Positions 281 to 55,755 of a DNA stretch of 64,000 bases are shown here, piece after piece (position 1 is the stretch's first letter; each line of letters begins with the position of its first letter). Under the pieces are notes generated by a model, which did no database searches, was not told the DNA's origin, and saw only the letters and a program-made list of their open reading frames with translations. The DNA comes from Candidatus Saccharimonadota bacterium (GTDB taxonomy: Bacteria > Patescibacteriota > Saccharimonadia > Saccharimonadales > JAXHNE01): assembly GCA_034520885.1 (NCBI GenBank), contig JAXHNE010000007.1, positions 118,827 through 182,826 of the forward strand. The letters are read 5' to 3'. The position numbers were made by a program, and so were the translations under genes.

Positions 281-1318
281 ATGAACGAAAACGTACTAGA
301 AAATATCGCAAACCAAATGGTAGTTAATGGTAAAGGAATCTTAGCGGCTGATGAGAGTAGCAGCACTGCAGACAAGAGGTTCGAGGCCGTGGGTGTCGAA
401 AAAACAGAAGAAAACAGACGTCTATACCGTCAACTTCTTTTTACGACACCGAACGTCGGCGATTATTTATCGGGTGTAATCTTATACGATGAAACTTTTT
501 GGCAAATTACAGGCGATGGTCAGCCGTTCCCCAAGATTCTAGAGAAGAGCGGTATTCTGCCCGGGATCAAAGTTGATCAAAAGCTGACTGATCTTCCAGG
601 GTTCCCGGGCGAGAAAGTCAGTAAAGGCTTAGACACATTGCCGGAACGTATTACAAAGTATGCCGAGAATGGAGCTAAGTTTGCTAAGTGGCGATCGGTT
701 ATTACGATCGGTGAAGGTATCCCAACAATTCCGTGCATAGAAGCTAATGCCTATGTACTGGCCAGGTATGCACGGATATGCCAAGACGTAAACATCGTAC
801 CTATGGTTGAGCCAGAAGTTTTGCTAGAAGGCAGTCATACTATAGAGCAATGTGCTGAAGTGTTAGCTAAGACCTTAGATGTCTTGTTTGGCGCTATGAA
901 AGAGTTCAGGGTGCATCTGCCCGGAGCAATATTAAAGACCAGTATGGTTCTACCAGGGAACAAGTCAGGCCAACTAATTAACGCTGATCAGGTTGCTGAG
1001 TTAACGGGCAGTGTTCTGCGTGCATATGTACCAGCAGAGCTTGGTGGTGTTGTGTTTTTGAGTGGTGGTCAGTCATCTGCCGATGCAATGATAAATCTCA
1101 ATCGGATTGCTGGACGCGGTCCGTATCCTTGGGGTCTTACATTTTCATATTCTAGGGCGTTGCAAGGTCCTGTTCTGAAAGCTTGGGCTGCTGGTAACGG
1201 GGGGACTATAAATGTCTTTGTCGACCAGCTGCGATATGCAACAGCGGCGAGAGAAGGAAAGCTAGATGAAACCCACCTAAATATAGATGATCACGTAAGC
1301 GGAAGTCAGGATTTGTAA
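281..1318 (+). CDS. fba: fructose-bisphosphate aldolase, class I
   Basis: 345-aa ORF with N-terminal GKGILAADES motif and length typical of class I (Schiff-base) aldolases; TACAAT -10 and aagagga SD upstream. Confidence 0.85.
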   Translation: MNENVLENIANQMVVNGKGILAADESSSTADKRFEAVGVEKTEENRRLYRQLLFTTPNVGDYLSGVILYDETFWQITGDGQPFPKILEKSGILPGIKVDQKLTDLPGFPGEKVSKGLDTLPERITKYAENGAKFAKWRSVITIGEGIPTIPCIEANAYVLARYARICQDVNIVPMVEPEVLLEGSHTIEQCAEVLAKTLDVLFGAMKEFRVHLPGAILKTSMVLPGNKSGQLINADQVAELTGSVLRAYVPAELGGVVFLSGGQSSADAMINLNRIAGRGPYPWGLTFSYSRALQGPVLKAWAAGNGGTINVFVDQLRYATAAREGKLDETHLNIDDHVSGSQDL

Positions 1319-2292
1319 TGACAGATAAACCTAAATTCGTGAGCGTCGGAGCGGCTGTTCAGGACGTATTCCTAAGCAAAAGCGAAGCACTGGACCCAGT
1401 GCATGAAGATGACGGCTCCGACTATGCTGAACTTAAAATGGGTGGAAAAGCAGACGTTGACCAGATTAATTTTAGTACTGGTGGTGGAGCAACAAACGCC
1501 GCTGTGACATTTGCCAGACAAGGCTTAGATAGCTATTTTATGGGCTCAGTTGCTGATGATCCAGCTGGTAAAGCAGTGTTAGCTGATCTGAAACAAGAAA
1601 ATGTAAATGCCACCGTCACTAAGTCCGGGGATTATAATACAGGTTACTCCGTTATACTTTTAGCTAACAATGGCGAGCGAACCATCCTTACTTATCGCGG
1701 CGCATCAACTCATTATACTGTCGATAATTTTGATATGAATGAATTAGGGCATTTGGACTGGATGTATGTTTCAAGTGTGTCTGGGAGGATTGAGGTATTG
1801 AAAAAAATTTTCCCTCAAGCAAGATCGCACAACATTAAAATTGCATACAACCCAGGCAAGGCTGAACTGAAACAGGCTAATGACCTAAAGCCGCTACTCA
1901 AGGAGTTTGTAGATGTGCTGATCGTAAACAAAGAGGAAATGCAGCGATTAGTTGAGGGTGATACCCTTGAAGAACTTGCCGTAGCCGGGCTAGAGTTTAG
2001 CGACACCGTAATCGTGTCCGATGGTCCAAATGGTGTCGGCGCCACCGACGGCAAGACATATATTAGTGCGGGGATGTACGAGGACGTGCCAGTGCTTGAT
2101 CGGACTGGGGCTGGGGATGCCTTTGGGTCTGGCTTTGTTTCGCAAATCGCCCAGGGCAAATCTTTGCGCAGAGCCGTTACTTTTGCAAGCGCAAACTCTA
2201 CTTCGGTTGTGCAATATATAGGTGCCAAAGCCGGTATATTAAATTCTGACGCCAAAATCCACGAAATGCCAATAAAGGAAAAGGAATTATGA
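1318..2292 (+). CDS. PfkB-family carbohydrate kinase (substrate unknown)
   Basis: 324 aa; GGGATNAAV and DRTGAGDAFGSGF ribokinase/PfkB signatures; start overlaps fba stop (TAATG). Confidence 0.8.
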   Translation: MTDKPKFVSVGAAVQDVFLSKSEALDPVHEDDGSDYAELKMGGKADVDQINFSTGGGATNAAVTFARQGLDSYFMGSVADDPAGKAVLADLKQENVNATVTKSGDYNTGYSVILLANNGERTILTYRGASTHYTVDNFDMNELGHLDWMYVSSVSGRIEVLKKIFPQARSHNIKIAYNPGKAELKQANDLKPLLKEFVDVLIVNKEEMQRLVEGDTLEELAVAGLEFSDTVIVSDGPNGVGATDGKTYISAGMYEDVPVLDRTGAGDAFGSGFVSQIAQGKSLRRAVTFASANSTSVVQYIGAKAGILNSDAKIHEMPIKEKEL

Positions 2293-3284
2293 GCACACCA
2301 AAAATACTTTGTATAGGTGACATTATCACTGACGACTTTATAGAATTATCAGAAGATCACGCTGATGTCACAGAAGATGATAAAGGCTATAAACGAATTA
2401 GTTTTGAGTTAGGCGCCAAGCTACCATACGATAATTCTGTTACCGTTAAAGCTGTGGAGTGTAGTCCGAACGCCGCTGTTTCAATGGCGCGTCTTGGTCT
2501 TGACGCCAGATTGATGTCTTGGCTTGGTGATGACAAGCCTGGCCAAGAAATGATCGAGTACTTGAAGGGAGAAGGTGTTTCCACGGATGAACTAGTGGTT
2601 GAAGAAGGCATGAAGTCCAATTATCATTACGTGCTTCGGTATGGAGCAGACCGGACAAAATTTCAAAGATATGAAGATTACTCATATGAGTGGAAAGAAC
2701 CTTCCGTAAAACCTGACTGGCTGTATCTTGGGGTCTTGGGTGAAAAAACCTGGCCACTTCATGAGGAGATTTTGAAGTATCTAAAAGATAATCCAGATAT
2801 TAAATTAGCTTTTCAACCTGGCATGTATCACCTTGAGTGGGGGCCTGATAAGCTGGCTGATTTCTACAAACGAGCCGAGGTAGTTGTCATGAACCGTGAA
2901 GAGACTGCCCAGGTTACAGGTAAAGATCGACGTGATGTCACTGAACTCATTCATGGCCTACACGATCTAGGAACTACAATCGCTGTCGTGACAGACGGAC
3001 CAGAAGGAGCTTATGCGAGTGATGGTGAGAGAATAGTCTTTATGCCGATTTATCCAGACATCAAACCGCCGTTTGACCGAACTGGCGCGGGCGATGCTTT
3101 TGCTTCGACCTTGACTGCGGTCTTGGCTAGCGGTAAAAGTTTAGAAACAGCCTTGACGTGGGCGCCCATCAACAGTATGAACGTGTCACAGCACATGGGA
3201 GCACAAGAAGGTTTGCTTACAGAGCGTCAAATTGCTGAATTTCTTGAAAACGCGCCTCAAGAGTATAAGCCACGAAAAATCTAA
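2289..3284 (+). CDS. PfkB-family carbohydrate kinase (second paralog, substrate unknown)
   Basis: 331 aa; DRTGAGDAFAS motif; 4-nt ATGA overlap with the upstream kinase. Confidence 0.8.
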   Translation: MSTPKILCIGDIITDDFIELSEDHADVTEDDKGYKRISFELGAKLPYDNSVTVKAVECSPNAAVSMARLGLDARLMSWLGDDKPGQEMIEYLKGEGVSTDELVVEEGMKSNYHYVLRYGADRTKFQRYEDYSYEWKEPSVKPDWLYLGVLGEKTWPLHEEILKYLKDNPDIKLAFQPGMYHLEWGPDKLADFYKRAEVVVMNREETAQVTGKDRRDVTELIHGLHDLGTTIAVVTDGPEGAYASDGERIVFMPIYPDIKPPFDRTGAGDAFASTLTAVLASGKSLETALTWAPINSMNVSQHMGAQEGLLTERQIAEFLENAPQEYKPRKI

Positions 3285-3346
3285 GAGAAATGCGCTAAAC
3301 ATAAGCTGGTTTACATCAGTTTAAAATGCTATGCTGATGCATAAGT

Positions 3347-4591
3347 ATGTCAAAGTTGCTCTCCGAACTCCTTGAGGCACAGGAGCCGATGTTTTCCAAA
3401 GCCATTGACCGGCTGGAACGGGCCAGCGGCAACCAAAGCGCGGACTTGCGCCTCACCAGCGAAATTACTGGTAAAGTGCAGAGAAAATCCAAAGAACTGG
3501 GGCTCGACCCGCACGACTCCACGGGCAAGGAGCTATACCTCGCGCTTTTGTCTTTGGTGCGAAAGCATGACGGATTTTTGGCCAAAAAAATGGGCGTGGA
3601 CGATCCGGAGGACGTGCAAGCGGTCGTTAAAAAATTGGCGGCTTTTGCCAGAAAAATGGATATGCCCAAAAAAGTGTGGGTGCTCAAACACAGCGTTGCC
3701 AAGAAAATGCTTAAAAAAATGCCGCCCAAAAAGATTATGAACCACTTGGGGTATCGCTCCATTGACTCCATGATTAAACGCGAGAAAATTCCCGAAATCT
3801 TCGCGGCACTGCGTTTCGCGGAAGACGGTGAATGGCTCAATAAGTTCTTACAAACCTATAAAAAACTCAAACCGGCCGATTTCGAGGTACGCGATATCGA
3901 AATAGTCACCCTGGACAGCAAGAAGTGGGGCGGCATAACCGAACATTTCGTTCACAAAAAACGCCATAATCTGACACACCTAAAAGAACTGGGCGTCATC
4001 GCCATTTTGCCCATGCCCATGGAGCGCATGAAAGGCATTGTTATTACGGTGTTGCCGCTTCTTTTGCATTACGTGAACGAGGTGCGGCTATACAGCTCCT
4101 ACTTTAAATTACAGCAAGTCCGCCACGACTTCGGCGAAGTAGTCGTGGATACGCTCATTGCGGACCCCGATCACCACGCGGTGATGGCGGGCAATCATGT
4201 GCACTGGCGGATTATCCAGCGCTATTTTGGCAAGCTGGGAAACGAATCGCATCCGGAGATTTTCCAGCCGCACTTGCAGCCGGAGGATTTGCACTGGCGC
4301 AAGGCCGAAGAGGTGCTATATAGAATGGAACCGGCGCTGCATTTCTGGTATGATTTGGACTATGTCGGCGTCATGAAGGACGGCCGTCCGGTAACACTGA
4401 ACCTCATGGACGTGGCAATCAGCTACGTAAACGATTTGCCATACGAAAAGCGGGCGATTTACCACTTTCGTGAAAGCCTGTGGAATGAAATTTTCATCCG
4501 TTACATGGGGCAAAAAACGCTGGAGCAACAAGTATTAAAACAACTGGATAACGAAATGGTAGCGCCGGAACTTCTGGACGTCAGCCTATGA
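3347..4591 (+). CDS. hypothetical protein (414 aa, soluble, Lys-rich N-terminal third)
   Basis: Long uninterrupted ORF with coding-like composition; no motif I recognise. Confidence 0.6.
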   Translation: MSKLLSELLEAQEPMFSKAIDRLERASGNQSADLRLTSEITGKVQRKSKELGLDPHDSTGKELYLALLSLVRKHDGFLAKKMGVDDPEDVQAVVKKLAAFARKMDMPKKVWVLKHSVAKKMLKKMPPKKIMNHLGYRSIDSMIKREKIPEIFAALRFAEDGEWLNKFLQTYKKLKPADFEVRDIEIVTLDSKKWGGITEHFVHKKRHNLTHLKELGVIAILPMPMERMKGIVITVLPLLLHYVNEVRLYSSYFKLQQVRHDFGEVVVDTLIADPDHHAVMAGNHVHWRIIQRYFGKLGNESHPEIFQPHLQPEDLHWRKAEEVLYRMEPALHFWYDLDYVGVMKDGRPVTLNLMDVAISYVNDLPYEKRAIYHFRESLWNEIFIRYMGQKTLEQQVLKQLDNEMVAPELLDVSL

Positions 4592-5917: not shown

Positions 5918-7882
5918 ATGAACCGCTTTCAGCTGAAGTCACAGTACGATCCGCAGGGTGATCAACCCCAAGCTATCGAAGCCCTGATTAAAGGGCTGGA
6001 TGCCAAACAAAAAGAGCAAACTTTGCTCGGGGTGACCGGTTCGGGCAAGACGTTCACTATGGCCAACGTGATCCAGTCCGTACAAAAGCCCACGCTGGTT
6101 TTATCGCATAACAAAACTTTGGCCGCACAGCTCTATAGTGAGTTCAAGCAGTTTTTCCCGGATAACGCGGTGCACTATTTCGTGAGTTACTTCGATTATT
6201 ATCAGCCGGAAGCTTACATTCCGCGCAGCGATACCTACATCGAAAAAGACAGCCAAATTAACGAGGAAATCGACCGCCTGCGCCATGCCGCCACCGACGC
6301 GTTGCTGTCTCGGCGGGACGTGATTATCGTGGCCAGTGTGAGCTGCATTTACGGTATCGGTTCCGTGGAAGATTACGACGGGTTGTCCATTCACCTGAAA
6401 AAGGGCGAACGCCGCGTGCGGGATAAATTCCTGCGGCAACTGACGGACATTCAATACCAACGCAACGATACCGACTTTCACCGCAGCACTTTTCGGGTAC
6501 GCGGCGACGTGGTGGATATTTTCCCCGCCGGCGAGGAAGCCGCTTACCGCGTGGAATTTTTCGGGGATGAAGTTGATCGGCTCACCCGGATCAACGCCTT
6601 GACCGGTGAGATTGAGGCCGACCAAAACGAACTGCGCATTTTCCCGGGCAGCCACTACGTGACCAGCCAGGACAAACTCAAGATTGCCCTGGGCCAAATC
6701 GAACACGAATTGCAAGAACGGCTCGCTCAGTTCAAACGTAATAATCAGTTACTGGAAGCCCAGCGGCTGGAGCAACGAACCCGTTTTGACCTGGAAATGC
6801 TGGAAGAAACCGGCTTCGTAAAAGGCATCGAAAACTACAGCCGCTACTTGACCAACCGCGAGCCCGGCGAGCAACCCGCCACGCTTTTGGATTACTTTCC
6901 GGATGATTACCTGATGTTCGTTGACGAATCACACATGACCATCCCGCAAGTGCGCGGCATGTACAATGGCGATCGCGCCCGCAAAGAAGTGCTAGTAGAA
7001 CACGGCTTTCGGCTGCCCAGCGCCCTGGATAACCGTCCGCTGCAATTCAGTGAATTCGAGCGCCATATCAATAATGTGGTGTACGTCAGCGCCACGCCGG
7101 CGGAATACGAATTAAGCCGCAGCGGTAAACCGATTGAGCAAGTCATTCGCCCCACCGGCCTGCTTGATCCGCCAATCGAAGTCCGGCCCATCAAAGGCCA
7201 AATTGACGATCTGATCGACGAAATAAAAGCCACCGTGGATAAGCGCCAGCGCGTGTTAGTGACCACGCTGACCAAACGCATGGCGGAGGACTTAACCGAA
7301 TATTTACAGGACGAAGACATCAAAGTCACGTACTTACACAGCGATATCGAGACGTTAGAGCGCACCGACATCCTGCGCGATCTGCGCCTGGGTACGTATG
7401 ACGTGGTGGTGGGGATCAACTTGCTGCGAGAAGGGCTGGACTTGCCGGAAGTTAGCCTGGTGGCCATTTTGGACGCCGACAAAGAAGGCTTCTTGCGCAG
7501 TGAGCAGGCACTGATCCAAACCGTCGGCCGCGCCGCCCGGCATCAGGAGGGCAGAGTAGTGATGTACGCCGACACCGTCACCAAAAGTATGCGGCGCACC
7601 ATGGACGAAACTACCCGCCGCCGGGAAATCCAAAAAGCTTACAACGACGAACACGGCATCACGCCCAAAGGCATCGCCAAAGCGGTGGAAAAAGGCTTGC
7701 GCCCCGACCTACCGGAAGAAGCCAAGACCGCCAAGCTGGATCTTAAAAAAGTACCCAAAGACGAATACAAACAGATCGTTAAGGACTTAAGCGCGCAAAT
7801 GGACTTGGCCAGCAAAAACCTGGAATTCGAAAAAGCCGCGGAGCTCAGAGACATTATTGCCGAAGTCAAGTCAAAACTCTGA
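5918..7882 (+). CDS. uvrB: excinuclease ABC subunit B
   Basis: 654 aa; Walker A GVTGSGKT, helicase motifs, C-terminal UVR motif; TACAAT 6 nt upstream of ATG. Confidence 0.95.
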
Positions 7883-7940
7883 CCCCGCCCGAAATTCTGA
7901 GTGGAGCAGTCCGCAACCGGATTGCGAAACGCCAAAATTT

Positions 7941-7988
7941 AAGGCGCGGGTAAGAGACATCATCAAAGAAGTCAAACCCAAGATGTAA
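7941..7988 (+). pseudogene. displaced duplicate of the uvrB 3' end (...KARVRDIIKEVKPKM*)
   Basis: Reads RVRDIIKEVKPKM-stop versus the true uvrB end [13 protein letters not shown]-stop; different frame, about 60 nt after the real stop. Confidence 0.45.
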
Positions 7989-8030
7989 TCATCAGCACCA
8001 ATCTGAAGTTTGAAACGGGAGACATACATT

Positions 8031-8074
8031 AACTCCGATTTAAATCGGAGTTAACTCGGAGTTCGGTGGTGTCG
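8031..8074 (+). repeat. palindromic 11-mer element, copy 1 (AACTCCGAtttaaaTCGGAGTTAACTCGGAGTTcggtggtgtcg)
   Basis: Read directly; shares core and 3' flank with six other copies. Confidence 0.9.
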
Positions 8075-8153
8075 TTCTTATTTAAGATGTTAAATGTCGG
8101 AGGCGGGGGTTATTTTTATTTGTCGTAGTAGTGGTGGGGGGCGGAAAAACAGG

Positions 8154-8182
8154 TTGACACAAACAAAGAAAAGTTGTAATAT
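8154..8182 (+). promoter_or_regulatory. sigma70-type promoter (TTGACA-17-TAATAT) for the 8190 cassette gene
   Basis: Consensus -35, 17-nt spacer, -10 ends 7 nt before ATG 8190. Confidence 0.6.
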
Positions 8183-8189
8183 GCAGCTT

Positions 8190-8945
8190 ATGAGTGAAGT
8201 ACTAAGAGGGCTTACTTTTACAGGTGGCGATCAAGCTGCTACAAATGCAGCCGCCGAAGCACCGTTTAGCGTAACTGAGCGCACCGACTTGGCGGTTGCG
8301 GCTTTCGGCTCTTTAGGCCAGATAGACAAGGCGCAACTGACCGAAGAAGTTGGCATGCACATGCAACAACTTCACGAAGGCCTTCACGGACAGTACGACA
8401 AAAACGACGTAGAGCCATTCATGTCGATTAACCTGTCTGATAGCTTTCCGCTTGCTGCGCTTGTGGTCGCGTTTGACAGACAGCAACAGGCAAAAACCTA
8501 CGTTTACGAACCATTTTGGAGTCAGTACAGCCCGGCGGAACTAAACAGCCGAAGTCTGGACAGTGCATCGGCACGTCAAGACATTACGGCTTCAGCCCGT
8601 GCTATGCTTACCGCCACTGATTACGAAGGTGAGTCTGGCCTGCGGTTTCCAAGCAAAAAAGGTAAAGATCAGTCCAATTTAGCTCAAGATCACGAACTAG
8701 TGAACCCAGCTGATTACATCATTCTGAATGCGCAACGACGCGAAGCCGGCGAGCCACTACTAGACACCCGAACCTTCACCCGTTTTGTGCAACTGGCTAT
8801 GAAGCCGGCTGGCGGGGCTGACGGCAGCACTTGGATTCCGGACGCGGGTTCCGGCCGCGGTCAGTTGAGCCTGCGCGGGGGGTCGTGCGACCATGCGATT
8901 CCGCACGCTGGTGTCCGTCTCTCGGTGGGGCGAAACCAGGCTTAA
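8190..8945 (+). CDS. hypothetical protein (cassette gene bracketed by palindromic elements)
   Basis: ORF 8094..8945; start moved to ATG 8190 because the consensus promoter lies inside the longer ORF; no recognisable domain. Confidence 0.5.
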   Translation: MSEVLRGLTFTGGDQAATNAAAEAPFSVTERTDLAVAAFGSLGQIDKAQLTEEVGMHMQQLHEGLHGQYDKNDVEPFMSINLSDSFPLAALVVAFDRQQQAKTYVYEPFWSQYSPAELNSRSLDSASARQDITASARAMLTATDYEGESGLRFPSKKGKDQSNLAQDHELVNPADYIILNAQRREAGEPLLDTRTFTRFVQLAMKPAGGADGSTWIPDAGSGRGQLSLRGGSCDHAIPHAGVRLSVGRNQA

Positions 8946-8996: not shown

Positions 8997-9053
8997 CGAA
9001 CTCCGAGTTAAATCGGAGTTAACTCGGAGTTAACTCGGAGTTCGGTAGTATTG
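8997..9053 (+). repeat. palindromic 11-mer element, copy 2 (one extra AACTCGGAGTT unit)
   Basis: cgAACTCCGAGTTAAATCGGAGTTAACTCGGAGTTAACTCGGAGTTcggtag read directly. Confidence 0.9.
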
Positions 9054-46498: not shown

Positions 46499-46583
46499 GG
46501 CGCGGTGGTGGAATTGGTAGACACGCTAGTTTTAGGAACTAGTATCGCGAGATGTGAGAGTTCGAGTCTCTCCCGCGCCACCA
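46499..46583 (+). tRNA. tRNA-Leu (anticodon TAG), type II with a long variable arm and encoded CCA
   Basis: Acceptor GGCGCGG/CCGCGCC, anticodon stem CTAGT/ACTAG with loop TTTAGGA, T-arm GAGAGTTCGAGTCTCTC, discriminator A + CCA. Confidence 0.9.
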
Positions 46584-46649: not shown

Positions 46650-46700
46650 CCGAACTCCGAGTTAAATCGGAGTTAACTCGGAGTTATGGTATGGTGTCGG
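46650..46700 (+). repeat. palindromic 11-mer element, copy 3
   Basis: ccgAACTCCGAGTTAAATCGGAGTTAACTCGGAGTTatggtatggtgtcgg, 67 nt after the tRNA-Leu. Confidence 0.9.
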
Positions 46701-46795
46701 TTTTTTGTTGGATAGTTTGCACAAAATTCAGGAGTGAAGGGGAATTCTCAGTATACGAACTAAAACAAGGGTCAGCATGTTAAAATACGGTTAAT

Positions 46796-49700
46796 ATGGC
46801 AAATTTGTTTGGTAAAAACAGGCTGAGTGAAAAAGCAGCCGAGATTAATACGGATGAGATTATCGATTTTATCGAGATCGTCAAAACATGGCACGCTGAT
46901 TGCCATGACGGTTCGCTCAAGAATGATAAAGAAACTTCTCGGGAACAGGAATACAATCAGTCCTTTTTCAAAAACATTCTCGGCTACAAAGAAAAACCAA
47001 CAGTCCCGTATAACTTTGAGCCAAAGGCGACAACAAAAACGGGCCACTTGCCAGATGCGGTCATCAGTTATACGGACAAGTCCAATGACATAGAAAATAT
47101 AGCTGCCGTTGTTGAGCTAAAAGGTGCATCGGTTGATCTAGATCGTCCGCAGCGTCGCGAGGGCAATATGAGCCCCGTACAGCAAGGTTTCAAATACAAA
47201 ACGCTATACCGTAACTGTCCATTCGTAGTCGTTAGTAACTTTTGGGAGTTTCGCTTGTATCACGACAACTTGCTCGACTACGAAGTCTGGACACTGGACG
47301 ATCTCGTTAACCCCGATGACGACTACATTCTGTTTAAAACTTGGTACACGCTACTAAAACGAGAAAATTTTACTGCCAAAAAAGGTGCCAGCAAGACAGA
47401 AGACCTACTGAGTGATATCCGCATTGAGCAGGAAGAAATAGGAAAAGATTTCTATAAAGTCTACAAAAAAGCAAGGCTTAGCTTACTCAGAGACATTATT
47501 GAGCAAAACCAAGTCAAACGAGGCGAAATAGACCTGGCTATAGAAAAAACGCAAAAAATCATTGATCGCATTGTTTTTGCTTGTTTTGCCGAAGACAGAG
47601 GATTGTTCCCGGATGATACTTTGCGCAGAGTTATAAAATCAGCGGATGAATCCGACTTTGATAGCTCGCTATGGTTTACGTTCAAGGCATTTTTTGAATC
47701 CGTTAATAGCGGTAGCGAGAAGTTAGGGATAGCGGACGGTTACAACGGCGGCCTGTTCGCACATGACGCAGAGCTAAATAACCTGAAGGTTGGCGATCGT
47801 CCTTTGCGCCAAATCGCAGAGCTTGGTGGGTACAATTTTGTTGAAGACCTGAGCGTTACCATTCTTGGTCATATTTTCGAACAGTCCATCAGTGACCTCG
47901 AAGAGATTAAAAACAAAGTCAATGAAAAACAAGGTCTAGACGCAATTCAGCAAAGTAGGCGCAAAAAAGACGGCATTTTCTACACGCCTGACTATATTGT
48001 CCGTTACATTGTCGACAACTCACTAGGGGCGTATCTACGTGAAGCAGAGGAACGGCTTAAAGACGAGTTCAGGCTTCACGGCGACATTAATGAAAAAAAT
48101 TATGAAAAACGCGAACGTCAAGCTTACGGTAAATACCAGGATTTCCTGCAAAACGTTAAAGTGTTAGATCCGGCGTGTGGTTCGGGCGCGTTCCTCGTGT
48201 ATGTGTTTGACTACCTGCTTGCAGAGAACAAGCGTGTGGCGAGCATTCTTGGCAATAGCCTGTTTAGCAGTGAAGATTATATAAAAGATATTTTACGCAA
48301 CAACATTTATGGCGTAGACCTTAATGAAGAATCAGTAGAGATAACTAAACTCTCACTATGGCTAAAATCCGCCCAAAAAGGTAAAAAACTTACCTCGTTG
48401 GACGACAACATAAAATGCGGTAACAGCCTTATAGACGACCCAGAAATCGCAAGCGACAAAGCTTTTGACTGGCAAAAAGAGTTTCCTAGTATTTTCGCAG
48501 ACGGCGGTTTTGATGTCGTTGTCGGGAATCCACCTTGGGTTTCACTAGGTGGAAAGCACGGTCAAAAAGTAAGTGACGATGAACTTAAATACTATATTGA
48601 GAAATACAACGGCAACACATACATGCCCAATCTGTTTGAATACTTCATAAATCTTGGCATCAATCTTTTGAGTACAGACGGTTATTTTGCGATGATTGTG
48701 CCAGATCGTTTTGGGATAAACGGTGTGTTTAACAAGTTACGTAAGCAAATATGGCAAAAGCATACCCTTGTTGAAGTCGTGTACAAGTGGGATTTTCCGT
48801 TTATCGTTACAGATACCATGACTTTTGTCATTAAAAAGCAAGTTGCGAACAAGCAAAAGGTGGCGATCAAGGCAAATCCAAAATCAGACTCAATATTCCT
48901 TACAAATAGCGAGATAGATGAAGATAGTTATGGGTTTAAGGCATTCAAATCAAAGCAGTCCAAAAAGCTTATTGATAAAATATTGGATGGCGGAGTTTCG
49001 TTATCGGAGGTTGCAAAAACCACTTCTGGTTTTGGTGGAAGATCAAAACTTATAACCATCAAAAGAGTGTCTCCAGAACAGAGAGAGATCTTGAAGGGTC
49101 AATCAATAGGACGTTATTTAGTCAAAGATAGGCTATATTTTGAATTTACTGACGAGAATGTAACCGGTAGAACGAGAGATGAAAATAAGTTAAGCGCAAG
49201 ACCAAAAGTACTACTCAGAAAAACTGGCTCGGAAATCATTGCCAGTTTCGACGACACTGGCGCATATCCAGAACAATCCCTTTACTTCCTATACTCATTT
49301 GCTGATAAAGTGCAGCCACTTTATATCTTGGCACTACTTAACTCAAGGTTAATAACTTGGCTTTTTAGAAATAACTACATAACTAACGCGGATAGTACTC
49401 CACAGCTAAAAAACATTGATTTAGATAAGTTTCCCATAGTAATTGCGGACAATAAAACGCAAGCGCAAATAGCAGAATTGGCGTCTGGCATAGTCGAAAA
49501 ATCAAAAACTTTGTACACGAACTCACAAAAACTAAATAGATTAGTGTCTGTGGAATTTTCTTTTGATAAGTTACCAGCCAAACTCAACAGATGGTGGACG
49601 CTTGACTTCGCAGACTTTGCAAATGCCTTAAAAGTTAAACTTTCGCTCCAGCAAAAAGACGAGCTTCTGCAACTCTTTGAAAAATACCGCACAGAATGTG

Positions 49701-49810
49701 CCGAACTCGACGCCCAAATCCAAAAAACCAATAACGAAATCGATCAACTAGTGTACAAACTTTACAACCTTACCCCCAAAGAGATACAGATTGTTGAAAC
49801 TGGAGCTTAA
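46796..49810 (+). CDS. type IIG/IIL restriction-modification enzyme (fused PD-ExK nuclease, N6-adenine methyltransferase and specificity domain; MmeI/Eco57I-like)
   Basis: 1004 aa; N-terminal LPDAV...VVELKG (PD-(D/E)xK), SAM motif VLDPACGSGAFLV, catalytic VVGNPPWV, C-terminal TaqI-like specificity region (LLNSRLITWLFRN). Confidence 0.85.
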   Translation: MANLFGKNRLSEKAAEINTDEIIDFIEIVKTWHADCHDGSLKNDKETSREQEYNQSFFKNILGYKEKPTVPYNFEPKATTKTGHLPDAVISYTDKSNDIENIAAVVELKGASVDLDRPQRREGNMSPVQQGFKYKTLYRNCPFVVVSNFWEFRLYHDNLLDYEVWTLDDLVNPDDDYILFKTWYTLLKRENFTAKKGASKTEDLLSDIRIEQEEIGKDFYKVYKKARLSLLRDIIEQNQVKRGEIDLAIEKTQKIIDRIVFACFAEDRGLFPDDTLRRVIKSADESDFDSSLWFTFKAFFESVNSGSEKLGIADGYNGGLFAHDAELNNLKVGDRPLRQIAELGGYNFVEDLSVTILGHIFEQSISDLEEIKNKVNEKQGLDAIQQSRRKKDGIFYTPDYIVRYIVDNSLGAYLREAEERLKDEFRLHGDINEKNYEKRERQAYGKYQDFLQNVKVLDPACGSGAFLVYVFDYLLAENKRVASILGNSLFSSEDYIKDILRNNIYGVDLNEESVEITKLSLWLKSAQKGKKLTSLDDNIKCGNSLIDDPEIASDKAFDWQKEFPSIFADGGFDVVVGNPPWVSLGGKHGQKVSDDELKYYIEKYNGNTYMPNLFEYFINLGINLLSTDGYFAMIVPDRFGINGVFNKLRKQIWQKHTLVEVVYKWDFPFIVTDTMTFVIKKQVANKQKVAIKANPKSDSIFLTNSEIDEDSYGFKAFKSKQSKKLIDKILDGGVSLSEVAKTTSGFGGRSKLITIKRVSPEQREILKGQSIGRYLVKDRLYFEFTDENVTGRTRDENKLSARPKVLLRKTGSEIIASFDDTGAYPEQSLYFLYSFADKVQPLYILALLNSRLITWLFRNNYITNADSTPQLKNIDLDKFPIVIADNKTQAQIAELASGIVEKSKTLYTNSQKLNRLVSVEFSFDKLPAKLNRWWTLDFADFANALKVKLSLQQKDELLQLFEKYRTECAELDAQIQKTNNEIDQLVYKLYNLTPKEIQIVETGA

Positions 49811-50661
49811 TGGACGGCTTATTTAACCATAGAGAGATAGCCGTAGGGCTGTGGTTAGCAGTACTTATAGTCTTTGCTGCTAGTAAAAAGGTAGTGCGCT
49901 CATCGTTTGTAGATGTTCTTAAAGCATTCTTCATGCCAAAAATAATCATACCGCTGTTACTGTCATTTGCGCCTATCTTGCTGGTAGTGTGGCTGTTGGC
50001 ATACTTCAATCTTTGGGACTTATCTGTACTTAAAGAGACAATCTACTGGGTTATTGGTACGGGAATAATAATGTTCGGTAAGTTTAATGATGTTAAAAAT
50101 GTAAAGACACTATACAAACAGACAGCAAAAGAAACTCTAGCGTTAGTGGTCTTGCTGGAGTTCGTTATTTGGCTTTACGTATTTCCTTTATGGGCTGAGT
50201 TGATATTAGTGCCGTTTGTAACCTTAATAGTACTACTGGCGACAGTTGCAAAGTATATGAAAACAGACGGTATAGGATTAACACGCAAAGTGCTAAATGG
50301 TATGCAAATATTCATTGGTCTACTTATACTACTATTCGCATTCATCGGCTTTACGAAAAACCCTGCATTGTTATTCACCTTTCAAAACCTAGAACTATTC
50401 TTATTGCCTATAATTTTGTCGTTGACCTACGCGCCGTCAGTGTACCTCATAGCGTTATACAGCAAGTATGAGTTGGTATTTAATCGCATCAATCACTATA
50501 TTTCGCCAGAAATCAAAGATAAACGGTCTATCAAGTTAGCTTGTATTAGACGCTGCGGTTTAAGCTTGCGCACAACTAGTGATATGACACGACACTTAGC
50601 GATTAACTTAACTAACGAGACAACAACCCCACAAGCCCTTAAATTGGTTCGTGATTTTTGA
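49810..50661 (+). CDS. hypothetical polytopic (~7 TM) membrane protein coupled to the RM gene
   Basis: 283 aa; start overlaps the RM stop (TAATG); same AT-rich composition; no known domain. Confidence 0.6.
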   Translation: MDGLFNHREIAVGLWLAVLIVFAASKKVVRSSFVDVLKAFFMPKIIIPLLLSFAPILLVVWLLAYFNLWDLSVLKETIYWVIGTGIIMFGKFNDVKNVKTLYKQTAKETLALVVLLEFVIWLYVFPLWAELILVPFVTLIVLLATVAKYMKTDGIGLTRKVLNGMQIFIGLLILLFAFIGFTKNPALLFTFQNLELFLLPIILSLTYAPSVYLIALYSKYELVFNRINHYISPEIKDKRSIKLACIRRCGLSLRTTSDMTRHLAINLTNETTTPQALKLVRDF

Positions 50662-50776
50662 CCCGAAACAAAAAGAAGCTTTGCTCGACACTAGCGCGTA
50701 GTGCGGCGCCTTTGCCATACCAGCGAAGCTCCAACACTTTTGTCTTTTATGACAGGCGAACCTTAAAAAACACATA

Positions 50777-50979
50777 GCTGAACCTTCAGGCGATAAAAGA
50801 AAAACTGCCCGGCTCAGACCAGTAAAAACATTAATTTACCAGCTTCTTCACCGAACTCCGAGTTAAATCGGAGTTAACTCGGAGTTCGGTGTCGTGTACG
50901 GATTTTCTTTAGTTGGTTTGCGCGAAAGTACAGAGTAGGGCGGGGTACCGCAATCCGGGGTTTAAAGCTCGCTACAATT
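50777..50979 (+). repeat. ~203-bp junction module L1 (contains palindromic element copy 4 at 50849-50891 and ends in TACAAT)
   Basis: Aligns along its whole length with 52831-53033, with scattered substitutions and one 1-nt indel. Confidence 0.9.
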
Positions 50980-51137: not shown

Positions 51138-52694
51138 ATGGCAAAGTCAAAAGCCAAAAGAACTAAAGCGTCACGTTCCAATAAAAAGAAAAAGCAATCA
51201 TTCGCCCAGAAATTCATGGGCCTCCCCAAAACGGTACTTTTCATTATTGCTTTTGGGCTGGTGGGAGTCGTTGGTCTTGTTATTGCAAGTGCCGGCCCGA
51301 ATTACAGTATGTCCCACAAACATTTAAATACGGAAAAATCAGTCAATGCCACAAAAGTTAAAGAAACCCGTGACAGCAAACGAAATGCAAAAGTAGTAGA
51401 AATAAAAAATAACTCAGAAGAGTCCGTTGCTAAAGCAACAATTTCACGCGACGTACCAGCAGGTACCTACGAAGTTTGTCTTATTGGTGTTGCTCAATCA
51501 GGTAGCCCAACGGGTACGTTCAGTGCGCGAGAATTTACTACCAGAACGGGTAATGATCTAGGGGTGACTACCTACACGGCAAAATCCGGAGGTGATTACG
51601 AAGAACTAGCATGTTTAAGTTTTGAGCATAAGGAAGGTGATAGCTCGCATTTGGCTCTATATGTCACTAACACGAATCCAGACACTTCGCTGAGGATAAG
51701 TGTCATCTCAGTAGAAGAGGTTGAAGGCAATGATACGGACGTGTCAATTGACGAGGAGCCAACTGATCCTCCGTCAACTGACCCCGGCGATTTGACTACC
51801 CTCTCGGGCTCACGGGCAATAAAGGCTTCATGCAATACGAAGGCACAGTACAATGGGACAAACCCACGCAATAACTTCCCAACGGATATTACGACCGGCC
51901 CGGAAGCCTCCGGCATCAACGAAGAGGCTTTACCAAGCTCAGGCCACTCCGGATCATGGACTATTTCACGAAACGGCGCAGTTGTTGACGGTGTTTTCCA
52001 TAACGGCAGTATTAATGTCAAAGCAGACAATGTAACAATAAAAAACAGTGTCATCTGCGGTAACTCAAGCATAATTGTTGACAACGATGGCAAAAACTTA
52101 CGTATTGAAAATTCAATAATTCGAGGCGAAGATAACGGTTCAGGTGACTGTGGTGCTGCTATAGCCCAAGGAAACTATAAAATGTACAACACAGAAGTAA
52201 CTTATTGTGCTGACGGTGGTAAGTTGAATGGTGTTGTCGAGATTTACAACTCATGGTTCCACGATTTTTTCACTAATCGCTACGGGAACGGAGGAGGTAC
52301 TCACAACGATACCTTACAGAAAAACAAAAACCCAAGTCTCGACCGGCTAATCGTTAAAGGCAATAGCATGTATCAAGACCCTTGTACCAGTAACCGACAC
52401 CTGCAAATGGGTGGACCGGATGAGTCAAGTCTCACGATTCCTTACTTAAGGTGGGAGGACAACTTTATGTATGGCATCAGAGGCTTCTATAAAGATGACA
52501 ACGTGCATGTAAGCGATGGTTTGATCTCTGGCAACACATTTGCAGGTAGTGCAACCAAAGGACCTTTCCCTACAGCTGGTTTATACAGCTGGGGTAATGG
52601 AACGCCAATACCGCGTAATGGAAATCTGTTCGAAAGTGGGCAAAATGCTGATGAAAATCCAAGTAGAAGTTCATATAACTGCACGAACATTTAA
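51138..52694 (+). CDS. membrane-anchored right-handed beta-helix (pectate-lyase/NosD-like repeat) surface protein
   Basis: Basic N-terminus + TM helix VLFIIAFGLVGVVGLVIA. C-terminal half has repeated N-x-(V/I)-x-I-x-N-(S/N) turns (VKADNVTIKNSVICGNSSIIVDNDGKNLRIENSIIRG). aagggg SD. Confidence 0.65.
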   Translation: MAKSKAKRTKASRSNKKKKQSFAQKFMGLPKTVLFIIAFGLVGVVGLVIASAGPNYSMSHKHLNTEKSVNATKVKETRDSKRNAKVVEIKNNSEESVAKATISRDVPAGTYEVCLIGVAQSGSPTGTFSAREFTTRTGNDLGVTTYTAKSGGDYEELACLSFEHKEGDSSHLALYVTNTNPDTSLRISVISVEEVEGNDTDVSIDEEPTDPPSTDPGDLTTLSGSRAIKASCNTKAQYNGTNPRNNFPTDITTGPEASGINEEALPSSGHSGSWTISRNGAVVDGVFHNGSINVKADNVTIKNSVICGNSSIIVDNDGKNLRIENSIIRGEDNGSGDCGAAIAQGNYKMYNTEVTYCADGGKLNGVVEIYNSWFHDFFTNRYGNGGGTHNDTLQKNKNPSLDRLIVKGNSMYQDPCTSNRHLQMGGPDESSLTIPYLRWEDNFMYGIRGFYKDDNVHVSDGLISGNTFAGSATKGPFPTAGLYSWGNGTPIPRNGNLFESGQNADENPSRSSYNCTNI

Positions 52695-52807: not shown

Positions 52808-52825
52808 GTTTTCCGTACGGAAAAC
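52808..52825. other. perfect 18-nt palindrome GTTTTCCGTACGGAAAAC after the beta-helix gene
   Basis: Read directly; terminator-like hairpin without a U-tract. Confidence 0.5.
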
Positions 52826-52830
52826 GCGTG

Positions 52831-53033
52831 GCTGAGCTTTCAGGCGATAAAAGAAAAACTGCCCGGCTCAGACCGGTAAAAACATCAATTTACGGACTTC
52901 TCTACGAACTCCGAGTTAAATCGGAGTTAACTCGGAGTTCGGTGTCGTGTACGGATTTTCTTTAGTTCGTTTGCGCGAAAGTGCAGAAGAGGGGCGGGGT
53001 ATTGCAATCCGGGGTTTAAAACCTGCTACAATT
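52831..53033 (+). repeat. ~203-bp junction module L2 (contains palindromic element copy 5 at 52905-52941 and ends in TACAAT)
   Basis: Direct repeat of L1; its TACAAT (53027-53032) sits 8 nt before ATG 53041. Confidence 0.9.
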
Positions 53034-53040
53034 TATGCAA

Positions 53041-53712
53041 ATGAGCGAAACACTTAGGAAAACGGAGAATCCCGAGCATTTCGATGTTCACCATGAAAAC
53101 GGTGAAGCTTTGATGTGCATGTCGAGCGAAGGCGAGTGCCGTGTCCTGGTAGAAATCATGTCGGGGTATACGCCCGAAGAACAGCAGCAGCTTACGGGCT
53201 CTACCACCGGCGCGCTTGAAGCCATTGATCGCTTTACGGACGGTAAAGCCGCGGATATTTTTACCGGTTTGCATATAAAAATTGGCGAGGACGTAACGGA
53301 AGGCGGAGCGAAAACAATCGCCGAGGAAAACCAAGTACTGCTCAGTGGTAGAAAAATGCTTTTGAGCATTGACGAAATGCGCCACGTAAGCGGAGCGTAC
53401 GGCAGCGAAGAGCTTACCGACTTTCCTGACGCACACCGACCTGGCGGCGCACTGGAATACACCCTGGTTCACGAAATAGGGCACGTTCTTGACGGCCAAA
53501 CCCAAGCCGGCGAACCGTACCACCGCGTTTCCGCCAAAGAAAGCCCTACGAAGTACGGACGCGAGTCCGACGAGTGGCACGACAATAAAAGCCACGAAAC
53601 GTTCGCGGAAGGCTTTGCGCACGCAGTTTACGACATGCCCATAAGCGAACCGCTGGAAACCGCCGTACGCGACACAATCAATACGAGGTTACAAGAAGTC
53701 ACCAAAACCTAA
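53041..53712 (+). CDS. HExxH zinc metallopeptidase-like protein (resembles the anthrax-lethal-factor / Pro-Pro-endopeptidase M34-type motif spacing)
   Basis: TLVHEIGHVLD followed ~45 aa later by HETFAEGFAHAV (third-ligand Glu context); no signal peptide; start moved from 53035 to 53041. Confidence 0.55.
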   Translation: MSETLRKTENPEHFDVHHENGEALMCMSSEGECRVLVEIMSGYTPEEQQQLTGSTTGALEAIDRFTDGKAADIFTGLHIKIGEDVTEGGAKTIAEENQVLLSGRKMLLSIDEMRHVSGAYGSEELTDFPDAHRPGGALEYTLVHEIGHVLDGQTQAGEPYHRVSAKESPTKYGRESDEWHDNKSHETFAEGFAHAVYDMPISEPLETAVRDTINTRLQEVTKT

Positions 53713-54831: not shown

Positions 54832-54870
54832 CACCGAACTCCGAGTTAAATCGGAGTTATGGCTTGTCGT
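54832..54870 (+). repeat. palindromic 11-mer element, copy 6 (short form)
   Basis: caccgAACTCCGAgttaaaTCGGAGTTatggcttgtcg, between convergent genes. Confidence 0.85.
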
Positions 54871-54896
54871 CAGGTCTGTTCGTTGGTTTTTGGGGT

Positions 54897-55583
54897 TCAG
54901 CCACTACTTAAGTGCTCGTGAATAATCTGCCAGTTGCCATCAATTCTTTGTAGAACATTAGTGCCACGACCTGTGTACACTGGTTGTTTGTTATTTACTT
55001 TGCCGTCTAAAGTAAAATCATATACGCATGCGGCGGTATCGTAGTCTCGCGCGAGCCACACAATGTTGTTTATCTTGTATATTCCATCCTGAATATTTTG
55101 GTAGATGCTCTCAAAGGCTTGCCGGATTGATTTGATACCGTGGTAGGTTCCATTCGTAAACCAAAAGACCGCGTCTTTGGCAATCATAGGGGCAACGTTC
55201 TCAAAATCACGTGAGTTGACCGCTTTCTCGTACGCTTGAAGAAGCGTGGTCAGTTCATTGTGAACCTCGGCGTCGCCGTTTGTAGTTATGGGTTCACCCT
55301 TTTTAATTGTTCGAGCGGCAACATCAGCCATTCTTTCTAAGTCCTGGTACGTATTGGCTTTATCTTCAGCGTGATTTACATAACGGCTTGGGCCTCGAAA
55401 CAAAAAGCGCTTGCCCCAAAATGAATGCACATAGGCGTGTTGGCTTTTCGGGAGCAGCTTAAAGTCTGCTTTGGTAATTTCGGTGAGCTCGTATGGCACT
55501 ACTACCTCGTCCTTTTTGAAGTCACGATTAGCTTGGACGCCTTTGCCTCGAAAACTGCCATTTCCGATACTTACGTTATCCAT
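54897..55583 (-). CDS. SET-domain / NTF2-like fusion protein
   Basis: N-terminal ~105 aa has SET features (GKGVQANRDFKKDEVVVPY, YVNHAEDKANT, IKKGEPIT); C-terminal ~115 aa is SnoaL/DUF4440-like (VFWFTNGTYHG...GNWQIIHEHLS). Confidence 0.6.
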   Translation of the reverse strand: MDNVSIGNGSFRGKGVQANRDFKKDEVVVPYELTEITKADFKLLPKSQHAYVHSFWGKRFLFRGPSRYVNHAEDKANTYQDLERMADVAARTIKKGEPITTNGDAEVHNELTTLLQAYEKAVNSRDFENVAPMIAKDAVFWFTNGTYHGIKSIRQAFESIYQNIQDGIYKINNIVWLARDYDTAACVYDFTLDGKVNNKQPVYTGRGTNVLQRIDGNWQIIHEHLSSG

Positions 55584-55676: not shown

Positions 55677-55720
55677 ACCGAACTCCGAGTTAAATCGGAG
55701 TTATGGTATGGTGTCGGTGG
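55677..55720 (+). repeat. palindromic 11-mer element, copy 7 (short form)
   Basis: caccgAACTCCGAgttaaaTCGGAGTTatggtatggtgtcggtgg; its 3' flank is identical to copy 3. Confidence 0.85.
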
Positions 55721-55755
55721 GTTGGGGTATAAAAACCTTATGCTAAAACGAAAGG

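Follow-up and report, generated by a model that had tools for sequence, protein, structure and literature searches.

Restriction-modification (RM) enzymes of the MmeI family that have been characterised are active as single polypeptides, and MmeI/Eco57I-type IIG enzymes (type IIL; Protein Data Bank (PDB) entry 5HR4) are polypeptides of about 1000 amino acids (aa) with the order nuclease, helical spacer, gamma-class N6-adenine methyltransferase and specificity domain. A gene encoding an enzyme of this layout, its nuclease part putative, lies in the DNA studied here, a stretch of 64,000 nucleotides (nt; "the window") from Candidatus Saccharimonadota bacterium (assembly GCA_034520885.1, contig JAXHNE010000007.1, positions 118,827 to 182,826 of the forward strand), and it overlaps the start of a second gene encoding a 283-aa membrane protein with seven transmembrane (TM) helices, which we call MP. 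MmeI itself differs from the window enzyme in being distant in sequence (PDB phmmer 9.7e-05, methyltransferase part only), and we know of no description, for the MmeI/Eco57I family, of a type IIG gene directly followed by an MP gene, an arrangement which we find here in four Saccharibacteria lineages. Our preferred reading, to which we give a probability of about 0.55, is that this is an autonomous type IIG enzyme whose gene shares a compact operon with MP, the conserved membrane gene of a defence island that targets tRNA genes by way of serine recombinases, and that the two proteins are not in an obligate partnership. The features on which we base this are:

46796..49810, forward strand: type IIG RM enzyme, 1004 aa, recognised by Pfam, PADLOC and motifs; putative N-terminal PD...ExK nuclease, gamma-class N6-adenine methyltransferase, TaqI_C specificity domain
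49802..49812, forward strand: putative coupling junction; GGAG at 49802-49805, 4 nt, then ATG at 49810-49812; stop codon TAA at 49808-49810
49810..50661, forward strand: MP, 283-aa polytopic membrane protein, seven TM helices, predicted N-out/C-in; member of a large unannotated family
46499..46583, forward strand: tRNA-Leu (anticodon TAG), found by ARAGORN and by Rfam (tRNA, 58.5 bits); left edge of a low-GC island

Other described systems resemble parts of this locus. BREX PglX shares the methyltransferase core of the window enzyme, and only that part (the top PDB matches were PglX/BrxX, 6e-11; NCBIfam BREX_1_MTaseX, 1.4e-35), but identity with PglX was rejected, as the score was 122 bits against a 500-bit cut-off and the window enzyme has a putative nuclease region at its N-terminus. 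None of BrxA/B/C, PglZ and BrxL is encoded near it; the genes around it are tRNA-Leu, MP and those for an HExxH protein and a secreted protein of 518 aa. RexB (of RexAB), KwaA (of Kiwa) and the TM effectors of CBASS/Pycsar are, like MP, small polytopic proteins encoded in a defence island, where each shares an operon with a nucleic-acid-related protein of the cytoplasm, and are the kind of functional analogue that the initial annotation had in view; MP differs from them in its seven TM helices, in its conserved site (predicted to face outward) and in showing no sequence or fold similarity to any PADLOC model or any PDB or BFVD structure, and, unlike the membrane components of two-gene systems, it is usually without one fixed partner. 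The islands that carry MP genes resemble P2/P4-type hotspots and defence islands in having a conserved core (serine recombinase, HTH_17, MP and p185, a protein of 185 aa that matches no family) with variable cargo; each kind of cargo has its fixed position, type IIG before MP and the MauJ-like, helicase-nuclease, DUF3800 or TIR-like genes after it. They are unlike P2/P4-type hotspots in their Saccharibacteria hosts, in their serine recombinases at tRNA genes and in using an uncharacterised seven-TM protein as the bracket gene, and they showed no structural genes of phages or satellites.

The enzyme gene is routine. Pfam models Eco57I (1.6e-38), TaqI_C (9.8e-22, residues 764-881), MmeI_Mtase (1.2e-15) and N6_Mtase (1.1e-14) all matched above their cut-offs, those for the nuclease region fell slightly below threshold (MmeI_N, 25.5 bits with a cut-off of 27; MmeI_hel, 23.4 bits), and the PADLOC model REase_MTase_IIG matched at 4.5e-116 in an alignment beginning at residue 31. 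Both a methyltransferase domain (motif I and motif IV) and a fused target-recognition domain are present, which supports membership of type IIG; the methylase motifs are DPACGSG (458) and NPPW (578), and a putative nuclease motif, PD(86)...E107-L-K109, was read from the sequence. These results uphold the description, in an initial annotation made from the DNA letters, of a full-length, MmeI/Eco57I-like type IIG enzyme of 1004 aa. The protein is 100% identical to P0297, a protein from an NCBI Candidatus Saccharibacteria metagenome-assembled genome (MAG), as MP is to a MAG entry, and the enzyme family is very large (7,526 matches at E<=1e-50 among the scored candidates). From its sequence it is apparently an ordinary, intact and autonomous MmeI/Eco57I-type IIG enzyme, a further member of a known enzyme kind.

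At the junction (ctGGAGctTAATGgac) the last A of the TAA stop codon is the first A of the MP start codon, a 1-nt overlap, and the Shine-Dalgarno-like motif GGAG lies inside the end of the enzyme gene. The initial annotation had read TAATG as the end of the enzyme gene, with its ATG as the start of the 283-aa gene, and had called both genes equally AT-rich; coordinates and overlap stand, as does the composition (GC 0.41 for the enzyme gene and 0.39 for MP, against 0.53 in the upstream flank). The same device, a T[AG]ATG overlap with GAGG, GGAG or GGTG placed 4-6 nt before the ATG, occurs in the three other loci that pair a type IIG gene with MP and in loci where p185 precedes MP, the motif being drawn from the final two or three codons of p185 and type IIG genes alike. 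This shared ribosome-site motif in the last codons probably explains why unrelated upstream genes have similar ends. We read the 1-nt overlap in the window as operon compaction, common in this small genome. It is unremarkable here: a crude gene set for the window has 36 same-strand neighbouring pairs, of which nine overlap and three do so by exactly 1 nt. The RNA structure at the junction was nothing special (z = -0.69), and no occluding RNA structure was found there.

MP is the less familiar half of the pair. Seven hydrophobic segments bear out the earlier description of a polytopic protein with seven TM helices, and a strong positive-inside bias (Lys+Arg per loop 4, 4, 3 and 12 inside against 1, 1, 0 and 0 outside) predicts an N-out/C-in topology, with a basic cytoplasmic tail of about 65 aa that is predicted to be helical. 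An AlphaFold2 (AF2) model reached a pLDDT of 81.8 and a pTM of 0.72. There are 52 close homologues at 51-81% identity; compared with its close homologues, the window MP lacks 5-12 aa at the C-terminal end. In a profile search of 1.84 billion representatives 4,356 clusters of the family passed E<=1e-3 and 2,455 passed E<=1e-30 (clusters at 50% identity), spanning bacteria and archaea and mostly of 270-310 aa. Across 223 diverse members R8, W80, E130 and P209 are 100% conserved, and all four are intact in the window MP; W15, W69, P135 and Y220 are conserved at 98-99%. The family signature, a core of about 285 aa with seven TM helices and R8-E9, W15, W69, W80, E130-x4-P135, P200, P209 and Y220-E221-x2-F224, is 90-100% conserved among these members, and the window MP carries every residue of it. 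On the predicted topology most of the conserved residues (R8, E9, W69, W80, E130, P135) would lie at the outer face of the membrane, and the conserved Y220-E221-x-x-F224 motif and tail on the cytoplasmic side.

No named family accounts for MP. The profile and structure searches that had been suggested for the seven-TM protein gave no relative: the window MP had no match in Pfam, NCBIfam, PADLOC or PHROGs; diverse homologues had none in Pfam or PADLOC either, PADLOC v2 models matching neither the window MP nor six homologues at E<=0.01; a scan of 17 diverse members at E<=1 gave not one family that more than two of them shared; and Foldseek comparisons of two AF2 models of the family with the PDB and BFVD gave best E-values of at least 1. 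NuoM was the sole PDB profile match (E=0.023), and was judged to be hydrophobic noise. In the Pfam, NCBIfam, PDB profile and Foldseek results MP thus matches no named transporter family, a possibility that the initial annotation had allowed for, and the annotation's remark that the arrangement fits no named defence system holds. The literature searched contained no description of the MP family or of an operon or island of the architecture type IIG-MP(-MauJ).

About 14% of the MP family has a long form (420-470 aa), in which a further conserved domain, C-terminal and cytoplasmic, bears the motifs ER.P..VP..RGWSPY.AKDFL and GDYH...DEWFASSPYL and has no Pfam match. Examples are the proteins P0054, P0055, P0072, P0073 and P0086, and the genes at 7001-8323 in locus L019, 7031-8314 in L020 and 6926-8305 in L040; one copy is on an archaeal Haladaptatus plasmid. 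In the AF2 model of a 435-aa member the extra domain has a pLDDT below 50, from a shallow alignment.

The neighbourhoods of MP and of the enzyme bear directly on whether the two belong together. We inspected 15 distinct MP loci of the close clade in Saccharibacteria, with MPs 57-81% identical to the window MP, and a type IIG gene lies directly upstream of MP in four of them, the other 11 being without one. By what stands upstream of MP, the loci are:

Type IIG: the window; L034-39; L008/9/18; L022/23; 1-nt overlap in each
p185: L001, L002, L003, L005, L013, L015; T[AG]ATG overlap in five, 2-nt spacer in L015
Only small open reading frames (ORFs): L007, L024; a resolvase-family recombinase farther upstream and a helicase-nuclease downstream
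Reverse transcriptase (RVT_1) and MauJ-like: L016; spacer of 4 nt from MauJ-like to MP
T5orf172, EcoRI-type methylase, weak HEPN, and GmrSD_N+HNH: L014; gap of about 70 nt
73-aa ORF: L010; short contig

A co-occurrence analysis, proposed with the initial annotation, therefore divides: type IIG-MP pairs do recur in three other Saccharibacteria lineages, but 11 of the 15 MP loci have no type IIG gene. The condition that the initial annotation had set for its refutation, homologues never found next to RM genes, did not hold: MP homologues do adjoin RM genes elsewhere, as seen in the type IIG genes upstream, with a 1-nt overlap, in L008/L018, L022/L023 and L034-L039, and in the GmrSD_N+HNH and EcoRI-type methylase genes of L014. 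In the p185 loci a HTH_17 gene (undetected in L015) comes before p185, and a large serine recombinase gene is divergent. After MP in the type IIG loci comes a DUF3800 gene in L034 and a MauJ-like gene in L008 and L022. In L022 the C-terminal half of p185 directly precedes the enzyme gene, in the order p185-TT-IIG-TAATG-MP-MauJ, which suggests that the type IIG gene was inserted into an older p185-MP operon. The 3′ ends of serine recombinase genes in related MP loci overlap tRNA-Pro, tRNA-Met or tRNA-Lys, the signature of tRNA-targeting integrative elements, and MP neighbours match the PADLOC models PDC-S37/Hhe (helicase-nuclease), DUF3800_VII, PDC-S06 and TIR-like.

The reverse question is whether the enzyme comes with MP. 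None of its three closest homologues (P0298, P0300 and P0301, at 80, 68 and 67% identity) adjoins an MP gene: that of P0298 (locus L032) is followed, 3 nt past its stop codon, by a gene for a soluble 432-aa protein that is not an MP; that of P0300 by a PDDEXK_1/Cas4-like gene and an FtsK_gamma gene; and that of P0301 lies between a ThiF/BilB-like cluster and a convergent DUF87-NurA-DruA cluster. DNA homology between the window and L032 runs up to the type IIG stop codon and ends exactly there. The MP-linked enzymes are only 56-63% identical to one another and 31-36% in the specificity part, the most divergent among homologues, as such a domain would be expected to be; they are not monophyletic, and the window enzyme is nearer to unlinked enzymes than to linked ones. 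Likewise the neighbour-joining tree places the window MP among MPs without a type IIG gene (79-81% identity) and not among the other type IIG-linked MPs (60-69%). In all, a type IIG gene in four of 15 MP loci, no MP at the three nearest enzymes and discordant trees do not describe an obligate two-gene system. The linkage either arose on more than one occasion or is ancient and has gone through repeated reshuffling and loss; in both cases, to judge from these sequences, the two genes are independent of each other.

Beyond Saccharibacteria, genes for MP relatives mostly stand alone in accessory or mobile parts of the genome. The initial annotation's argument that strict coupling implies a partner role for MP is not supported by these comparisons: the enzyme has homologues without MP, most MPs are without a type IIG gene, the trees disagree and the family is mostly solitary. 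On its abortive-infection, gate and anchor ideas the comparisons speak neither for nor against.

We therefore propose that MP is not a subunit of the enzyme but would be a conserved membrane gene of a family of Saccharibacteria islands, which would integrate at tRNA genes via large serine recombinases and whose operon would read HTH17 - p185 - [type IIG] - MP - [MauJ-like, helicase-nuclease or DUF3800]. In the slot just before MP several defence cargos would be interchangeable, the type IIG gene among them, and the window would hold a recombinase-less version, with type IIG and MP only, beside tRNA-Leu. By analogy with characterised family members, the enzyme would read an asymmetric site through its TaqI_C domain and N6-methylate adenine in host DNA with S-adenosylmethionine, and its PD-ExK nuclease would cut unmethylated incoming DNA at a fixed distance. 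MP would be co-transcribed with any upstream gene and translated from the overlapping ATG via the Shine-Dalgarno-like motif in that gene's last codons; it would insert N-out/C-in, with its basic helical tail inside, and act alone at the envelope. Its most likely role, we infer, would be island-encoded exclusion or defence, sensing or blocking at the cell surface.

Several points weigh against this proposal. The type IIG-MP pair has the identical 1-nt overlap in four lineages, despite MP divergence to 60% and enzyme divergence to about 56-63% identity, and this recurrence is far above random adjacency (type IIG genes number about 1-2 per roughly 900 genes); it could reflect selection for co-expression instead of shared residence in an island. 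A tblastn search of the window with four recombinases from related loci gave no homologues, and a repeat of tRNA-Leu of the att type was likewise looked for there and not found. We can thus only infer, from GC content and the position of the tRNA gene, that the window holds an island remnant, because it has neither recombinase nor att repeat. A defence or exclusion role for MP is guilt by association, and the sample inspected comprises about 15 MP-clade loci and three unlinked type IIG loci, compared in neighbour-joining trees without support values.

The same recurrence is what might be expected if the enzyme and MP were a true two-gene defence system, with MP an enzyme-dependent effector, gate or anchor (for example, a membrane-disrupting abortive-infection effector released upon failed restriction, or a tether at the site of DNA entry). 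That the junction is kept in the window, L034, L008 and L022 beside diverged enzymes with different specificity domains suggests that it is maintained, the two genes share a low GC content, and the conserved, basic cytoplasmic tail of MP could contact a soluble partner. We nevertheless consider such a system unlikely: the closest enzyme homologues have no MP, 11 of 15 MP loci have no type IIG gene and most members of the wider family stand alone; the trees of the two proteins are discordant; MP matches no known membrane effector among the PADLOC models; and characterised MmeI-family enzymes are established to work as single polypeptides. A broader partnership, in which MP is a general membrane partner of adjacent nucleic-acid-targeting modules (p185 with its RNHLRH motif, MauJ-like, type IIG, GmrSD-HNH, reverse transcriptase or helicase-nuclease) and the enzyme is one interchangeable cytoplasmic arm of an envelope sensor or effector, would accommodate the fact that all 15 Saccharibacteria-clade MPs are flanked by such modules or by a recombinase, and that ten of them have tight coupling between MP and the gene before it; the conserved residues predicted at the outer face, the cytoplasmic Y220-E221-x-x-F224 motif and tail, and the extra cytoplasmic domain of the long form would also suit it. 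Yet these modules have no detectable similarity to one another (hhalign probability 0.3 for p185 with MauJ), many family members stand alone, and the MPs of L007 and L024 have no coupled upstream gene, so that we regard this idea as doubtful, if worth keeping in view.

Were the adjacency incidental and MP a decaying or functionless passenger ORF, its C-terminus, 5-12 aa short, and the lack of a recombinase in the window would be readily explained; however MP is of full length with seven helices, keeps the four residues that are invariant in 223 members, has 52 close homologues at 51-81% identity and gives a confident AF2 model, all of which makes this explanation very improbable. More speculatively, and as a tentative suggestion that we would not ourselves expect to hold, the MP family may be a new kind of envelope-embedded defence or exclusion component whose outward site (R8/E9, W69, W80, E130) senses or blocks an event at the cell surface, for instance the entry of phage DNA, and whose tail couples to interchangeable nucleic-acid-targeting modules, the type IIG enzyme being one, in which case the type IIG-MP pair might be a modular, membrane-linked restriction system. 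The evidence as a whole inclines us to the autonomous enzyme in an island operon.

What is known here is the kind of RM enzyme, and defence islands as such; what is new, by the literature searched, is the type IIG-MP(-MauJ) operon and the architecture of the island, and to these comes the unannotated MP family. The chief interest lies in that family, which is very large and sharply conserved, unnamed in databases and unlike solved or predicted viral structures. MP is the constant gene of a Saccharibacteria tRNA-targeting island, the other slots of which hold restriction, HEPN-like, reverse-transcriptase, helicase-nuclease, DUF3800 and TIR-like genes, and a constant gene amid variable defence cargo is a pattern that has earlier yielded new defence genes. 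This makes MP a testable candidate and a lead for gene-function discovery, with no new mechanism shown. A second interest is the compact mobile defence island itself, in bacteria of the Candidate Phyla Radiation (CPR), whose mobile elements and immunity are poorly known. Should MP be merely a neighbour, what is left is a defence island that carries an ordinary RM gene.

The wider contexts of MP are varied. MP-bearing lineages include Sphingobium, Pseudomonas, Arcobacter, Salmonella, Clostridium perfringens, a Clostridiales MAG, Desulfobacterota, KSB1, Latescibacteria and the Haladaptatus plasmid. The MP gene stands:

on an Arcobacter plasmid, beside an AAA_13 ATPase gene (PADLOC PDC-S06) and a DUF3800 gene
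on a Salmonella IncHI2 plasmid, with an integrase fragment on either side
on a C. perfringens plasmid of 12 kb, which also has a resolvase
in a Clostridiales MAG, beside a small serine recombinase gene
elsewhere, beside a HigB/HTH toxin-antitoxin pair
in an actinobacterial element, with type IV secretion system (T4SS), DarT and UvrD-type helicase genes
on the haloarchaeal (Haladaptatus) plasmid, among hypothetical genes
in one case, among metabolic genes

Plasmid searches gave only a handful of MP matches; phage records, searched with two members as queries, gave none, IMG/VR contigs held no members, and a DNA search of E. coli genomes with the Salmonella homologue found no match.

Within the Saccharibacteria clade, the island core with a large serine recombinase (about 600-640 aa, its 3′ end over tRNA-Pro(TGG)) is seen at 7300-10876 in L001 and 5339-8867 in L005, and also in L003, L002, L013 and L015; the recombinase is divergent from the HTH_17-p185-MP operon, and p185 carries an invariant FRNHLRHD (an Rx4H motif). 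We considered p185 as a HEPN protein and rejected this: the RNHLRH motif speaks for it, but there was no Pfam or PADLOC match, and hhalign against MauJ-like proteins gave a probability of 0.3. Other versions have a resolvase-family recombinase at tRNA-Met (L007) or tRNA-Lys (L024). In L002 a 13-nt repeat of the tRNA-Pro 3′ end (CCTTTCACCCCGA) occurs at 7405 and 16719, 9.3 kb downstream, which may be the far boundary of the island (about 0.03 such matches are expected by chance); neither the window nor the other loci yielded a repeat of this sort. The reverse transcriptase (RVT_1, YVDD), MauJ-like and MP genes of L016 stand in a row at 869-3533, which looks like a retron, defence-associated reverse transcriptase (DRT) or Abi-type reverse-transcriptase module joined to a MauJ-MP pair. 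Two further type IIG-MP pairs are possible, P0021 (MP, 71% identity) with P0355 (type IIG), each on a 5,511-nt contig, and P0059 (a distant MP, 30%) with P0362 (type IIG, 56%), each on a 9,709-nt contig, although about one such coincidence of contig size is expected by chance.

Two of the loci with unlinked enzymes are of interest in themselves. The 432-aa protein of L032 (3101-4399) has no PADLOC match; it has a C-terminal VRNKFVH (Rx4H) motif and a weak hhalign similarity to MauJ-like proteins (E=0.066), and the arrangement may be a recurrent pairing of type IIG with a HEPN-like protein. L031 (3230-13276), which holds the enzyme at 67% identity, is a dense defence island, with DUF2604, BilB-like/Y4jH-like and ThiF genes upstream, which make up a set for ubiquitin-like conjugation of the Bil type, and convergent DUF87 (HerA-like), NurA-like and DruA genes downstream.

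In the window, GC content falls from about 0.53 to about 0.40 directly past tRNA-Leu, and the low-GC stretch (about 46.6-57.7 kb, 11 kb), which the type IIG-MP unit opens, continues to just before the histidyl-tRNA synthetase gene. It also contains genes for a 518-aa secreted protein, a HExxH protein, a deaminase, a DUF4440 protein and SET-SnoaL proteins, among them:

51138-52694: 518-aa protein, anchored in the membrane at its N-terminus and matching no family
53035-53712: 225-aa protein with a HEIGH metalloprotease-like motif and no Pfam match
54897-55583: 227-aa protein, an unusual fusion of a SET domain with SnoaL/DUF4440

Promoter and terminator scans of the window gave matches at chance level only. 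The gene units of the island are separated by five copies of a repeated intergenic hairpin element, two of which flank the type IIG-MP unit:

46651..46744, forward strand: hairpin element copy with core AACTCCGAGTTAAATCGGAGTTAACTCGGAGTT, between tRNA-Leu and the start of the type IIG gene; direct-repeat families D1/D2
50767..50979, forward strand: second copy, downstream of MP, closing the type IIG-MP unit; families D2, D3 and D5

The second copy is 88-94% identical to that at 52821-53033 (about 213 nt each); the others are at 54837-54887 and 55681-55731, with further sites at 8042-8063 and 8999-9042. The element was absent from all other loci fetched, and its pattern has 19 matches in the window where none is expected. 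The core, AACTCCGAGTT-AAATCGGAGTT-AACTCGGAGTT, consists of 11-nt units of which the first is the inverse of the third, and it folds into a 13-bp stem (z = -4.2) followed by a U-run; the element could be a terminator, an element like the repetitive extragenic palindromes (REP-like), an operator or a cassette boundary.

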